This document shows positions 2,587-40,157 of a DNA stretch of 41,067 nucleotides, piece by piece (the first letter of the stretch is position 1; each line of letters opens with the position of its first letter). The notes under the pieces were generated by a model. That model made no database searches. It was given only the letters and a program-made list of their open reading frames with translations, and was not told the DNA's origin. Made by a program: the position numbers and the translations under genes. Location: the IMG/VR virus record IMGVR_UViG_2541047898_000010; one strand, 5' to 3'. The DNA is from a virus (taxonomy: Duplodnaviria > Heunggongvirae > Uroviricota > Caudoviricetes).

Positions 2587-4053
2587 ATGAAAAGAAAACA
2601 ATATTTTTCTACAATACTGACATGCACAATGCTATTTGTTCTGCCTATAATAATCGCCAATGTTTACTATATAGATGATAATTATAGGTCTATAACTGGC
2701 GATGACGCGTGGCACATAGATGGCCGCCCTTTATCAGACTTATTAATGTACATCGTTAATGGGAATACTCATTTAACAGATACTTCCCCATTACCAACTT
2801 TCATTTCAATTATACTTTTATCAGTAAGTAGTTATTCATTCTCTAAAAGGTACATTGGTTTTAATCATGGTGTAATCCCATTTACTTTGATACCACTTTG
2901 TATTTTTGCCAGCCCATTTTTCATTGAGAATGTAGTTTATAAATTTGATGTGCTTCCAATGTGTGCATCTATTAGCTTATCTTATTTGTTTATAAATGTA
3001 AGTATAGCAAATAGATTTCTCAAGTTGCTGTGTCTATCTGTAATAGTCACATGCATATTATCTGCTTACCAAGCATCTATAAACTTTTTGCTATCACTAG
3101 TTCTATGTGAGTTCTTATCAAGATACAACAACAATGTAAAGAACTTATTTTCTTTTATTATTGAAACAATGGCGTCTCTTTGTATTGGTGCTTTTATTTA
3201 TTTAAAGATTATACTTCCTATTTTTCTTATAACACCTGAGTCCTCAGATCACCCAATGCTAGAGGCGCAAAATATTATTGGTGTTGCTTACAGCAATTCT
3301 CTGTATTACTTAAACTTAATATGGATATCAATACCTGAATCATGGCGATATATCTACTTGTTATTATTTGCTATGTCTATTATTTGCGCAATATGTATTG
3401 CAATAATCAAAAAGGAAAATGGAATTACTGGATTGATTCTATGCCTTATTGCTGGTCTATCGCCGATCATTTCCGTCTTGTGTTCATTTATAAGCCTATC
3501 AACCCTATCTTCGCCATTGCCATTCCCAAGAGTCATGATAGGATTCTCTGGTACATGCCTATTTATTGCAATGGTTATATTTGAGTTCACAAAATCTTTT
3601 AGGGCTAAGGTATTCTATATATTAGCAATACCAGTCTGGTTTTCTTTTGGTATGTACTATTCATATGGAAACGCTTTACGAGCAAGCAGCGATATTACTG
3701 ATGCTATATTTAACAATATAAAAGATGATGTATTTTCATTAACAAAGAAAGAAGACTCTGTAATATTATTCCACGGAGCAACACCAAAAAGCAAAGTGTT
3801 GTTAAACTCAATTAAGAATTACCCTATAATAGGTGGTTTGGTTCCAGATTACCTTACAAACTGGACTTTACCTTATACATATATGTCAAGAATAGGAATT
3901 TCCTATGTAAAAGATTATAGCGTCAATGCTGATGATATAATAAATAACAATAATTTTTGTTCTAATTCTGATAGAATAGAACGATATAATTATAATGTTC
4001 TATTTTTTGATGATATTTCAATAATAGATTTCAGTAAAGAACTTTGCAGGTAA
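2587..4053 (+). CDS. Serotype-specific O-antigen glucosyltransferase (Gtr type-specific, GtrC-like)
   Basis: 488 aa, strongly hydrophobic multi-pass protein, markedly AT-rich compared with neighbours, third gene of a gtrAB cassette. Confidence 0.7.
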   Translation: MKRKQYFSTILTCTMLFVLPIIIANVYYIDDNYRSITGDDAWHIDGRPLSDLLMYIVNGNTHLTDTSPLPTFISIILLSVSSYSFSKRYIGFNHGVIPFTLIPLCIFASPFFIENVVYKFDVLPMCASISLSYLFINVSIANRFLKLLCLSVIVTCILSAYQASINFLLSLVLCEFLSRYNNNVKNLFSFIIETMASLCIGAFIYLKIILPIFLITPESSDHPMLEAQNIIGVAYSNSLYYLNLIWISIPESWRYIYLLLFAMSIICAICIAIIKKENGITGLILCLIAGLSPIISVLCSFISLSTLSSPLPFPRVMIGFSGTCLFIAMVIFEFTKSFRAKVFYILAIPVWFSFGMYYSYGNALRASSDITDAIFNNIKDDVFSLTKKEDSVILFHGATPKSKVLLNSIKNYPIIGGLVPDYLTNWTLPYTYMSRIGISYVKDYSVNADDIINNNNFCSNSDRIERYNYNVLFFDDISIIDFSKELCR

Positions 4054-4055
4054 AA

Positions 4056-4085
4056 AAAGCCCTCTTTAGTGAGGGCTGTTTTTTC
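4056..4085. terminator. Bidirectional intrinsic terminator between convergent gtr cassette and tailspike gene
   Basis: A-run, stem agccctc (4058-4064) / gagggct (4071-4077), then T-run gtttttt. Confidence 0.6.
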
Positions 4086-5934
4086 ACTCAAATAAAGTTT
4101 CCATAATGTATGTGATGCTACCAGTAAATTTAGATGTGGTGCTAATGCTAGAGTCCTGGAGTGGGCTGGTTGCAGGAATTTGGTGATTGTAGAAGTCTAT
4201 AGATGTTGACCCTCTTTCTATAGCAATGGAACACATCCCCACACCAGGTTGTAGTCCTGTAGCAATGGATACAATTCCACTGGCGCGGTTTGACGAAGGG
4301 TAAGGTAAATCCCTGATTTTCATTGCTCCAGTCTGCCCGCTGAATCCATTTAATTCCAAAGAAAATTCGACTGTAACAAGGCCTCCGTCTTTCCTGAATT
4401 TTATATCCGCTGACGCACCTGAAATTCCAACCGTGCTCGTACCAAATGTTATTCTTGCCCCATCAAGAGAGCCTTTAGAGATGAATGGCTCAGGAACTAT
4501 GGACTCAGATGCACCTGTTGCACGATATAAATATTTGTTACCTGGGGTATTAACAATAACAGTAGATCCTGACGCCCATGGACCAGAGCCAATAACAGGC
4601 AACTCTCCACTCTCAAACAGACTGTTAGTAAACACCAAGTTGTTGCCAGGACCGTGTATAAACACGTCGTATTTATATGTTCCACCAGATCTAAAATTGT
4701 TAATTGTTATCCTGTTTTGTGTGCCGTTAATGGATATAAGTGGGCTTTGATCATTGGCGATAGGCAGACATCGGAAAGAATCTATGTTGATTGTGTTCTC
4801 ATTAAGGAATGCTAATGCAGAACCATAATCCAAAGTTTTAGCTCTTGCTTGTTCACAACCACAACCTAATAAATTGATATTAGAACACTTATCAAAAAAA
4901 TAAGCTGTACTTGTGGTTCCATCAGATGCGCATCCTATGAGATTAGAATAACTGACGTTTTCTAAACGAAAAGCCCCGGGAGTCGTATCACCATACTCGT
5001 CTGGTGAGGCGCACCAAACATTGGTATAGGTAGTAGATGTTCCACCATTCTGCCTTATCTGGCCCCATGTCGCGATGTTAGTTAGCGTTGTCAGCCAAAC
5101 ATCATTCATCAAAATAGCGGTCTTAGCATTCTTTACCCCTATCCGCTCAAGAGCATATGCTTGCCCTGCATTTATAGCCAGTCCACATTCTCCTCCAAGA
5201 TCATCAGCCTCTAGCGTAATATCTCTTAATGTCACCCTCTGTGGAAAAGTTTCATAAGATGGAGCCTCAGAATCAACATAAGCTACCGTATCAACAGTAA
5301 ACTCTGGTGCTGATGAGGATTGCCCAGGCTTTAATGTTACAGTTGCATTACCGGTTTTTTTAAATCTCTTTGTGGTTTGAATTTCTGTCCCAGATAGAAT
5401 GAACTGATAATCATGATCTCCATGGTAGGTTTTAAATGAGCTGAATTTAAATCCATCTATTGGGGTGTTCACGTTACCAATGATGTTAGGAAGTTTTTCT
5501 CCGAGAGTGTCACCCACATTGCTTTGGGTGCCGCTTTCTGGGTTTGTGTATCCAACCAGGTTTGCGCCAACTCCTGATCCTAACTCTTGTCTCAATTGGT
5601 CTGGATCATACTTCAGCACATTAGGGAAATAGAATTGCTGAGCACCATATGCATCATAAACAGCCATAGAATGGCCTTGCACGGTAACGAATTTGGCAAT
5701 CTGTCCGTTATATACCGGGTAACCAGCAGCGTTAATGATGATTGGTTGCGAAACAGGAACGTGAGAGCCGTCTTCGTTCTCCACATAAACCTGAATCTGG
5801 TTTTCAGTATTTACCGGATCAGTGTCAATTTTTCCGATATAAATCTTTCCATTAGCTACGGCTTTAAAAGAACGAGCCATAGTGAAGAGTTGCGAAGGCA
5901 TGCTTACTACAACATTGGCTGTAATGTCTGTCAT
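4084..5934 (-). CDS. Tailspike protein (P22/Sf6-type head-binding N-terminus, distinct receptor-binding domain)
   Basis: 616 aa; first ~110 aa ([11 protein letters not shown]...KIDTDPVN...VLKYDPDQ) match P22 tailspike N-terminal domain from memory; ATG at 5932-5934. Confidence 0.9.
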
Positions 5935-36533: not shown

Positions 36534-36670
36534 CCATTAATCACCAGATGCTTCGTGCTGCACAGAACAAAGCAGTAATAGCCAGATTTATTGGTGATTC
36601 AAAAATGTGGCTTGAAGCAAATAAAGCGATGAAATCAGCTATCAACCTTCCGTGGTATCGCAGGAAATGA
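36518..36670 (+). CDS. kil: Kil-like protein
   Basis: 50 codons from ATG 36518 (GGAGG upstream), overlapping cIII end: MRNEIAINHQMLRAAQNKAVIARFIGDSKMWLEANKAMKSAINLPWYRRK. Confidence 0.5.
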   Translation: MRNEIAINHQMLRAAQNKAVIARFIGDSKMWLEANKAMKSAINLPWYRRK

Positions 36671-36745
36671 GTTTTACAGATAACTGGTCAGACGAAGAAT
36701 TCATTCGTCAGATGAAAGAATTAATCGGTAACGAAGGAGATATTC

Positions 36746-36916
36746 ATGTCACTTGCAACCACAGTGAAGGAGAGCAAGTTACAGAGACGCATGTACACGC
36801 AGAAAGCTCTCTGGTATCGCCATAATGGCGACCGCGAAGGAATGCGGGTATGCCTTAATTTGTCCCGAGTCGAAGTATTAAATCAGCGTTATTTCCTTGG
36901 GCCGTGTCCATTCTGA
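36746..36916 (+). CDS. Hypothetical small protein before erf (56 codons)
   Basis: ATG 36746 preceded by AAGGAGA; MSLATTVKESKLQRRMYTQKALWYRHNGDREGMRVCLNLSRVEVLNQRYFLGPCPF. Confidence 0.4.
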   Translation: MSLATTVKESKLQRRMYTQKALWYRHNGDREGMRVCLNLSRVEVLNQRYFLGPCPF

Positions 36917-36926
36917 GAACAATCAT

Positions 36927-37532
36927 ATGAGCAAAGAATTTTACGCAAGACTGGCAGCTATTCAGGAGAATCTGAACGCGCCAAAGAATCAGTACAACTC
37001 ATTCGGTAAATATAAATACAGAAGCTGCGAAGATATTCTTGAAGGCGTTAAGCCGTTACTGAATGGTCTGTTTTTATCAATCAGCGATGAAGTTGTGTTG
37101 ATTGGTGATCGGTATTACGTGAAAGCCACGGCAACTATTACCGATGGCGAAAACAGCCATACGGCAACCGCTCTTGCACGAGAGGAAGAAAGCAAGAAAG
37201 GAATGGATTCTGCACAAGTTACGGGAGCTACAAGCTCTTATGCACGCAAGTATTGCCTCAATGGTTTGTTCGGCATTGATGATGCGAAAGATGCAGATAC
37301 AGACGAGCATAAACATCAGCAGAACGCAGCAGCAAAGCAATCAAAACCATCACCTACACCTGAACAGGTTCTAAAAGCATTCACTGACGCAGCAATGCAG
37401 AAAAACACCGTAGAAGAGCTTAAACAGGCGTTCGCCAAAGCGTGGAAGATGCTCGAAGGCACACCTGAGCAGCACAAAGCGCAGGACGTTTACAACATCA
37501 GACGAGACGAATTAGAAGGAGCTGCTGCTTAA
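36927..37532 (+). CDS. erf: Erf single-strand annealing recombinase
   Basis: 201 aa from ATG 36927: MSKEFYARLAAIQENLNAPKNQYNSFGKYKYRSCEDILEGVKPLL... resembles P22 Erf. Confidence 0.85.
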   Translation: MSKEFYARLAAIQENLNAPKNQYNSFGKYKYRSCEDILEGVKPLLNGLFLSISDEVVLIGDRYYVKATATITDGENSHTATALAREEESKKGMDSAQVTGATSSYARKYCLNGLFGIDDAKDADTDEHKHQQNAAAKQSKPSPTPEQVLKAFTDAAMQKNTVEELKQAFAKAWKMLEGTPEQHKAQDVYNIRRDELEGAAA

Positions 37533-37915
37533 TGGCACATTCGATTACTGTAAGACTAAACAAGCCCGCAAGAGAGTTTCAGGCCGGGGAAAATATCGGA
37601 TTCAACATCCGTGCTGGCGTTCAGTATTACGATCGCCAGACAAAAAAGAAAGAATGGACAAACTACAGCGCCGTTGTATTTGCCAAGCCGGGAGCGCAAG
37701 CGGATTACTACCGTAGTGTTCTTGTTGAAGGTGGCATTGTAGAAATTACCGGAGAAAACATCATGGTTGATGTTTATCAGGGGCAAAATGGTCAATCAAT
37801 CACTCTTGAATTACTGAATGCAAAGATTGGATTTGCAACTTCAGGAAACAGCCAACAGCAACAAAGTAGCAATCATCAAAATCATCCTGAATACGACGAT
37901 TCAATTCCCTTCTAG
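37532..37915 (+). CDS. SSB-like ssDNA-binding protein with acidic C-terminal DDSIPF tip
   Basis: 127 aa; C-terminus EYDDSIPF resembles the conserved bacterial SSB tip (DDDIPF). Confidence 0.55.
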   Translation: MAHSITVRLNKPAREFQAGENIGFNIRAGVQYYDRQTKKKEWTNYSAVVFAKPGAQADYYRSVLVEGGIVEITGENIMVDVYQGQNGQSITLELLNAKIGFATSGNSQQQQSSNHQNHPEYDDSIPF

Positions 37916-37938: not shown

Positions 37939-38232
37939 ATGCCAGCGCCTTTGTATGGTGCGGATGACCCGCGCCGCTGTTCCGGCAATTCCGTATCGGA
38001 GGTGCTGGATAAATTCAGAAAAAACTACGATCGAATAATGTCTCTACCGCAGGAAACGAAAGAGGAAAAGGAATTTCGCCACTGTATATGGCTTGCAGAG
38101 AAAGAAGAACGCGAGCGAATTTACCAGACATCAATCCGACCATTCCGCAAAGCCACATATACCCACTTCCCTGAAATTGACCCGCGCCTGCGTAATTACC
38201 GCTCACGCTATGGCGCTATCAGTAATGACTGA
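37939..38232 (+). CDS. abc2: Abc2-like anti-RecBCD protein
   Basis: 97 aa [56 protein letters not shown]... resembles P22 Abc2. Confidence 0.65.
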
Positions 38233-39488: not shown

Positions 39489-40157
39489 ATGACCACTATT
39501 ACCAAAGAACGTATCGAATTATTCATTAAAAATCCGCTTGATAACGGACTTACTCGTGGCGAACAAATGGAACTGGCACGAATTGCACTGGCATCACTGG
39601 AACGCGAACTGATTCGCCACGAGCATGCCAAATGGTCTGACTCCACATTTGGCTGCGTTGGCCCCATTGGTCCGCTGAAACATCTCTCAAAAGAGGCACT
39701 GGAAGCCGCAGCCGAACCAGACGATCTTAGCGAGTGGGCTGATATGCAGTTTCTGTTGTGGGATGCACAGCGCCGTGCTGGCATCAGCGATGCTGAAATT
39801 ACCGCTGCTATGGAAGATAAATTGAAGATCAACATGGAGCGCCAGTGGCCTGAGCCAAAAGATGGTGAGCCTCGCTTGCACATTAAAGAACCCGGCAACT
39901 ATCCGGTAACTCCGGATGGTTGGATAAGCTGTAGTGAGCGAATGCCAGAAATGGGAGAGCGACAATGCTATGTGTTAGCAGCTGACTTTAAAAACAACTA
40001 CCCACCAAACATCCCCAACACTCAGGTCGGCGTATATGGCGACTGGTTTAATGATGGCAATCCAACTTGGGATGACGGTGATGGCGAAGACCTGTATCTC
40101 AAAGAGGTAACCCACTGGATGCCTCTACCAGAACCGCCTCGATTAAAGGAGCTATAA
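39489..40157 (+). CDS. DUF551-type protein (Eaa-like)
   Basis: 222 aa; C-terminal VTHWMPLPEPP signature. Confidence 0.55.
   Translation: MTTITKERIELFIKNPLDNGLTRGEQMELARIALASLERELIRHEHAKWSDSTFGCVGPIGPLKHLSKEALEAAAEPDDLSEWADMQFLLWDAQRRAGISDAEITAAMEDKLKINMERQWPEPKDGEPRLHIKEPGNYPVTPDGWISCSERMPEMGERQCYVLAADFKNNYPPNIPNTQVGVYGDWFNDGNPTWDDGDGEDLYLKEVTHWMPLPEPPRLKEL

Follow-up and report, generated by a model that had tools for sequence, protein, structure and literature searches.

A gene between erf and abc2 in a Caudoviricetes genome probably encodes a compact, highly diverged SSB with a host-like docking tip

We used computational methods to characterize a 127-residue open reading frame (ORF) situated between the recombination genes erf and abc2 of the viral genome IMGVR_UViG_2541047898_000010 (Caudoviricetes), a stretch of 41,067 nucleotides referred to here as the window. 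Our results indicate, with a probability that we put at roughly three in four, that this ORF encodes a compact and highly diverged phage single-stranded DNA (ssDNA)-binding protein (SSB) of the HK97 gp40 or "SSB-1b" family, which joins an oligonucleotide/oligosaccharide-binding (OB) core to a Q/N-rich linker and a docking tip resembling that of the host SSB and which acts in Erf/Abc2 recombination. Such an SSB-like interpretation, already proposed in a preliminary description of the sequence, draws support from the fold, the key residues, the architecture, and the genomic context; it was borne out by the predicted OB fold, by four aromatic residues, by the layout of core, linker, and acidic xPF tip, and by the coupling to Erf. 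SSB-1b is described here as a putative ssDNA-binding protein, and all the partners named for its tip are candidates. Phage SSBs with an acidic tail in a recombination module are a kind already known, and a published study has given the SSB-1b family its name; the present work adds the conservation of the tip, the mapping of the aromatic residues, the conserved translational coupling, and a census of the recombinase cores that share a C-terminal domain.

The sequence model phrog_44 ("single strand DNA binding protein") matches the ORF with an E value of 2.1e-27. Direct assignment to the canonical SSBs through Pfam, NCBIfam, and phmmer and hmmsearch comparisons with PDB failed, with only sub-threshold matches (the best phmmer match in PDB being an SSB, E=0.058), and for this reason the assignment had to come from comparing profiles with each other and from predicting the structure. 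An AlphaFold2 model, computed from a family alignment of 45 sequences obtained in a homologue search, has a predicted local distance difference test score (pLDDT) of >90 over residues 1 to 105, and its topology of three strands, a helix at residues 55 to 63, and further strands is that of an OB fold, followed by a disordered tail from residue 107 onward. When this model was used in a fold search, the best PDB matches were bacterial and mitochondrial SSBs and PriB. The OB-fold prediction that the preliminary description had named as a check thus comes out with high confidence, and the model assigns the protein to the SSB/PriB type of OB fold. Comparison of the family profile with E. coli SSB by hhalign gave a probability of 91.5% and placed Y32, W42, F50, and Y82 opposite W40, W54, F60, and W88, the four side chains with which E. 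coli SSB stacks on ssDNA in the 1EYG complex. Within the family alignment, Y32 and F50 are invariant, W42 is conserved in at least 90% of the sequences, and position 82 is Y or F in all sequences shown. Besides the OB fold and these aromatic positions, the two proteins share a helix between strands 3 and 4, a disordered linker, and a D-x-I-P-F tip; they differ in length (178 residues in E. coli, 127 here), in the linker (∼55 and ∼15 residues, respectively), and at the position of the tetramer-interface residue His55, which is opposite an invariant threonine (Thr43) in the family, and their identity is 10 to 17%. When 1.84 billion cluster representatives were searched exhaustively with a hidden Markov model (HMM), no more than 213 members emerged (E≤0.001) and the very large canonical SSB family left no trace, and SSB-1b is therefore a small, separate family outside the mainstream PF00436 sequence space.

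The product ends in SSNHQNHPEYDDSIPF* (also written NHQNHPEYDDSIPF), an ending that the preliminary description had likened to the acidic tip of bacterial SSBs. We confirmed this likeness against a reference sequence of E. coli SSB that is identical to chain A of PDB entries 1EQQ and 4MZ9 over 178/178 residues: E. coli SSB ends in PPMDFDDDIPF and the window protein in HPEYDDSIPF, so that the last nine residues, PEYDDSIPF and MDFDDDIPF, share five identities (D, D, I, P, and F) in addition to the conservative pairs E/D and Y/F. Among the 224 stop-to-stop ORFs of at least 60 residues in the six frames of the window, a single one has an ending of the form [DE][DE]x[IVLMP]P[FWY]. Across the family, a conserved core of ∼100 residues is followed by a low-complexity tail rich in Q, N, and P, which varies in sequence and in length (24 to 116 residues), and then by a tip whose logo reads [F/W/Y]-D-D-[S/D/E]-I-P-F, with an xPF ending in 107 of the 151 full-length members. 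The tip is conserved among members that are only 28 to 50% identical in the core, with the linker changing freely between them, and members from Leminorella, Yersinia, and the Edwardsiella phage GF-2 carry the exact enterobacterial host tip PPMDFDDDIPF. Because one ORF in 224 has such an ending and the family keeps the motif while the preceding linker varies, the match is not due to chance, and the retention of the last seven residues, after a linker that drifts freely, marks the tip as a functional docking peptide.

Some branches of the family have altered tips. The members of one subclade (P0091, P0095, P0097, P0103, P0106 to P0108, P0117, and P0118) end in ...NFNQPQR or ...GFPQHQG and may either have lost the docking peptide or use another motif. 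In P0126, P0154, and P0156, the DxIPF motif does not end the protein but runs on into a conserved extension (...IPFAPIGLQ...) of ∼15 extra residues, which should prevent the free-carboxylate recognition typical of the pockets that bind the SSB C terminus (SSB-Ct). The SSB of one metagenomic phage (locus L089) ends in ...LPDDDWV instead of xPF, and the C terminus of its Erf is unrelated; two genes downstream of its Erf/SSB-1b pair lies a homologue of RdgC, a recombination-associated DNA-binding protein (PF04381, positions 3906 to 4835 of that locus).

The start codon of the gene shares one base with the erf stop codon, indicating that translation of SSB-1b is probably coupled to that of erf, and a Shine-Dalgarno sequence lies 10 nt 5′ of the ATG, with GGAG at the same site in most related loci. 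The upstream product matches the ERF family (PF04404, E=2.4e-44, residues 15 to 153; phrog_155, E=5.7e-58) and is 75% identical to P22 Erf, with most of the divergence in the C-terminal part of the alignment; an alternative TTG start at position 36897 would extend it to 211 residues. Downstream, the Abc2 protein is 93.8% identical to P22 Abc2. The three genes erf, ssb, and abc2 were kept together in 80/80 close loci from IMG/VR, and HK97 has the same gene order. Since the IMG/VR search returned only copies 97 to 100% identical, we drew the family's diversity from a search for encoding contigs and from a GTDB scan. Among these distant relatives, the SSB-1b gene was again found directly 3′ of a recombinase gene, which encodes Erf in Chimaeribacter, Serratia, Rahnella, Cedecea, a Vibrio phage, and GF-2, an AAA_24/Sak4-like protein in Leminorella and Serratia, and a Rad52_Rad22 protein in two Yersinia species. 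Whichever recombinase core is present, the one-base TAATG overlap is kept, both across 11 related Enterobacterales loci and in HK97, and erf and abc1 of P22 overlap in the same way. In several marine metagenome-assembled genomes and one metagenomic phage, no recombinase was recognized adjoining the SSB-1b gene. Seven family members have no recognizable Erf-type C-terminal domain within 3 to 4 kb, and six of these seven retain the acidic xPF tip.

Recombinases of different types that precede SSB-1b have a further feature in common. AlphaFold2 predicts three helices for residues 136 to 201 of the window Erf (pLDDT 85.9), and an HMM of this C-terminal domain (CTD), built from Erf-attached copies only and giving zero false matches against a background of 1,681 ORFs, found the same domain at the C termini of the Sak4-like (E∼1e-13) and Rad52-type (3e-10 and 2e-5) recombinases upstream of SSB-1b. 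A homologous three-helix domain of ∼55 residues is therefore carried by three unrelated cores (ERF, AAA_24/Sak4-like, and Rad52_Rad22), always directly 5′ of the next gene, be it SSB-1b or Abc1, with a one-base overlap. In P22-like Salmonella prophages, 66 of 69 Abc1 loci have a P22-type CTD and gave no match to the Erf N-terminal domain, and the sole one inspected among them (L100) has a Rad52_Rad22 core. Domain shuffling of this sort has been noted before in general terms (PMC8093625), and the similarity between the CTDs of Erf and Red-beta rests on the same study; our own hhalign comparison of these two CTDs, made with a small profile, detected no similarity (probability 1.3%).

We considered whether the type of CTD tracks the downstream gene. 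All 80 SSB-1b loci have the window type and 69 of the 71 Abc1 loci the P22 type, but the wider sample gives no specificity: the P22 and window CTDs are 40% identical, which puts the P22 CTD at no greater distance than many SSB-1b-linked CTDs (35 to 46%). Moreover, the close relatedness of the 80 and 71 loci and the direct adjacency of CTD and downstream gene confound the linkage, and the CTD and OB distances showed no covariation (Mantel r=0.15, p=0.23). The idea that the tip subtype (DDSIPF, DDDIPF, or xPPF) follows the CTD subtype was rejected as well, given that L172 and L176 have near-identical Sak4-type CTDs and tips ending in PPF and IPF, respectively.

Two published systems suggest what such a tip might do. 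In the lambda Red system, the CTD of Red-beta binds the last ∼9 residues (7 to 9) of the host SSB, an interaction that is required in vivo (PMC11611040; bioRxiv 10.1101/2020.04.14.041095), so that a small helical annealase CTD reading an SSB tail may serve as a model for Erf reading the window tip; the two differ in that the SSB of the Red system is the host's, with no phage SSB. The SSB of phage HK620 (HkaK, DUF669, "SSB-2") occupies the same slot between recombinase and abc2 and has an acidic tail ending in PPF where the window protein has IPF, and it is the best functional analogue of the latter. Its last six residues (NDYPPF) are required both for Sak4 to bind SSB-coated ssDNA and for the stimulation of annealing and recombineering (Hutinet et al. 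2018, PMC5928155). The two SSBs differ in size and family, with 195 residues and a DUF669 assignment for the HK620 protein (PMC5928155), and the HK620 Sak4 (226 residues) is without the ∼55-residue CTD borne by the Sak4-like proteins that precede SSB-1b. Homology between the HK620 and window SSBs was rejected (BLASTP E=72). Homology to P22 Abc1 was likewise rejected, with no alignment at E≤100; Abc1 occupies the same slot between erf and abc2 and has the same one-base overlap with erf, yet its sequence is unrelated.

Based on these precedents, we propose that Abc2-modified RecBCD at phage DNA ends, or replication forks, would expose ssDNA, which SSB-1b would coat in the Erf/Abc2 pathway. The tip, free on its flexible linker, could then present a landing peptide for other proteins: it may recruit Erf through the three-helix, Red-beta-CTD-like C-terminal domain, and, as a mimic of the host tip, it may also bind, or compete for, the host readers of the SSB C terminus. 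To our knowledge, the C-terminal domain of Erf has long been without an assigned partner. The engagement of host SSB-interacting enzymes, which the preliminary description had suggested, is plausible in view of the tip sequence and competes as an explanation with the recruitment of Erf itself; the published precedents for such tips, on phage or host SSBs of recombination modules, are no less suggestive of a ligand in the phage's own recombinase. On the other hand, a ligand beyond the cognate recombinase is favored by the members that keep an acidic xPF tip with no CTD nearby. The two classes of ligand, the phage's own recombinase and the host SSB partners, are plausibly not mutually exclusive. 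More tentatively, and with considerable doubt, we speculate that the SSB-1b tip and the portable CTD on Erf, Rad52/Sak-type, and Sak4-type recombinases form a plug and socket, by which annealases would be loaded on ssDNA through a phage or host SSB tip, while the phage SSB would recruit its own recombinase and compete with the host SSB for repair and replication enzymes, with the serine at position −4 tuning the choice of partners.

Several observations weigh against our interpretation of the gene as a recombination SSB with a host-like docking tip. The 127-residue protein has no match to PF00436, or to any other Pfam model, at E<1, and it scores 15 bits against the TIGR00621 ssb model, whose cutoff is 53.95. 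Some family members are devoid of the tip altogether. In the enteric clade, to which the window tip conforms, position −4 is a serine where the host tip has aspartate, and this residue could weaken the binding of host partners; because one substitution in the tail is enough to switch the compatibility with an annealase (bioRxiv 10.1101/2020.04.14.041095), the tip is perhaps not equivalent to that of the host. Finally, the CTD model also matches P22 Erf and a Rad52-type protein, both of which precede Abc1, and the CTD must therefore be seen as a general adaptor that is not specific to SSB-1b.

Three other explanations have to be weighed against a recombination SSB. The protein could act mainly on the host interactome, with many copies of the tip titrating or redirecting ExoI, RecJ, RecQ, RecO, PriA, and chi, and so protect phage ssDNA or disturb host repair and replication. 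The close mimicry of the host SSB-Ct speaks for such a decoy or competitor, as do the tips retained by six of the seven members with no CTD-bearing recombinase in their vicinity and the neighboring abc2, which itself hijacks a host enzyme; yet the conserved aromatic residues at DNA-stacking positions argue for genuine ssDNA binding, and the gene is tightly coupled in translation to recombinases of three kinds, which speaks for a part in recombination. We consider this explanation unlikely. The protein could instead be an SSB for replication, such as many phages encode. Host SSB tips contact chi and PriA (reviewed in Shereda et al. 2008, as cited in PMC11611040), and the phage protein might in the same way coat the lagging-strand template and contact the host replisome or PriA through its tip, its adjacency to erf being an accident of mosaic genome organization. 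We regard this as quite improbable: the module that houses the gene is the PL recombination module rather than the O/P replication module, many lineages show an overlap between its start and the stop codon of the recombinase, and a survey of 325 lambdoid phages places their SSB genes inside Rec modules (PMC12315714).

The remaining explanation questions the SSB function itself. PriB and other OB domains score near SSBs in fold searches, curated SSB models stay below threshold, and frameshifted or truncated copies exist (in phage HF4s and in P0027, P0047, and P0086), all of which would fit an OB-fold protein with a different role, for instance that of an adaptor like PriB or of an inhibitor, or else a remnant in decay; in each case the terminal IPF would be kept only by SSB ancestry. 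Against this, the tip is kept over strongly diverged cores while the linker changes freely, and therefore appears to be under purifying selection, and the gene is intact at ≥90% identity in 572 of 5,426 complete E. coli genomes. We thus give this explanation very little credence, the least of the three.

By tblastn, the window protein matches HK97 gp40 with 93.7% identity over 127/127 residues, an HK022 ORF with 99.2% identity, and a phage Sf101 ORF with 100% identity, and these ORFs are mostly annotated as "hypothetical protein." The gene is present in 579 of the 5,426 complete E. coli genomes (∼11%), where it bears the same label from RefSeq/PGAP, and a firm SSB annotation would therefore correct thousands of records. 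The 2025 survey of lambdoid phages named HK97 gp40 "SSB-1b" after its SSB-like predicted structure (AlphaFold3 [AF3]), at ≤15% identity, and defined an "HK75-type" module of an anti-RecBCD protein, an SSB, and a single-strand annealing protein, with no nuclease (Genome Res, PMC12315714); its assignment of SSB-1b came from the AF3 fold only, and the C-terminal tip, the aromatic residues, and the coupling to a recombinase CTD are absent from its main text. HK97 gp40 belongs to the same family as the window protein and sits in the same slot between the strand-annealing protein and abc2, and we see no difference between the proteins. Erf-ssb modules are, moreover, the commonest arrangement in phages of Firmicutes (PMC8093625). 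Erf modules with their own SSB are candidates for portable recombineering systems, portability being limited by the compatibility of annealase and SSB tip (bioRxiv 10.1101/2020.04.14.041095), and the Erf/SSB-1b pair, with 328 residues in all, would make a very compact cassette. The tip and the shared recombinase CTD also bear on how Erf is targeted to ssDNA.

Coordinates of the SSB-1b gene, its parts, and associated features (positions in the window unless a locus is named)
Feature	Position	Strand	Remarks
SSB-1b (HK97 gp40 family) ORF	37532..37915	+	ATG start, 127 aa plus stop; from ORF listing and sequence
OB-fold core, residues 1-103	37532..37840	+	putative ssDNA-stacking residues Y32, W42, F50, Y82
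Short disordered Q/N/S/H-rich linker, residues 104-118	37841..37885	+	pLDDT <50 at residues 107-127
Acidic tip PEYDDSIPF, residues 119-127	37886..37912	+	apparent mimic of host SSB-Ct MDFDDDIPF
erf, Rad52-like single-strand annealing protein	36927..37532	+	201 aa from ATG; upstream partner, probably translationally coupled
Erf C-terminal domain, ~residues 146-201	37362..37529	+	predicted three-helix bundle (AlphaFold2); candidate SSB-tip receptor
Shine-Dalgarno sequence AAGGAG of SSB gene	37516..37521	+	inside last erf codons; read from sequence
TAATG stop/start overlap erf/SSB-1b	37530..37534	+	erf TAA 37530-37532 and ATG 37532-37534 share one base
abc2, anti-RecBCD gene	37939..38232	+	third in recombination module; PF11043 E=6.1e-64; phrog_656
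CTD-bearing recombinases of other loci	L085 3138-4001; L172 1029-1892; L174 2246-3001; L175 2249-3001; L100 1794-2501		

The early-left recombination module of the window reads kil, two small ORFs at the Arf position, erf, ssb, and abc2. The two small ORFs (36652 to 36825 and 36746 to 36916, plus strand; 57 and 56 residues) overlap in differing frames; they fill the interval from kil to erf, where P22 has arf, and both have PHROG matches labelled "recombinase" (phrog_2123, 9e-42; phrog_1723, 9e-36). Downstream of the module, in the ea region, a protein of 222 residues (39489 to 40157, plus strand) has a dATP/dGTP pyrophosphohydrolase domain (PF04447, E=5e-42) and, at its C terminus, a DUF551 domain (PF04448, E=3e-20).

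A few of the related loci are disrupted or carry additional genes. In phage HF4s (MT833387; L001, positions 3636 to 4031), SSB-1b is split into a 94-residue "ssb protein" and a 36-residue ORF, in what looks like a frameshift or a sequencing error that separates the OB core from the linker and tip. Two decayed prophages have an intact SSB beside a damaged erf: in one (L080, 2300 to 4000), an ORF of 322 residues resembling an insertion sequence transposase lies between the erf core and the C-terminal domain, and in the other (L012, 3400 to 4001), the erf core is deleted and the C-terminal domain alone is left, fused beside a cI-like repressor region. The Leminorella prophage with a Sak4-like/SSB-1b pair (L085) also encodes a homologue of the theta subunit of DNA polymerase III (PF06440, 7013 to 7243).
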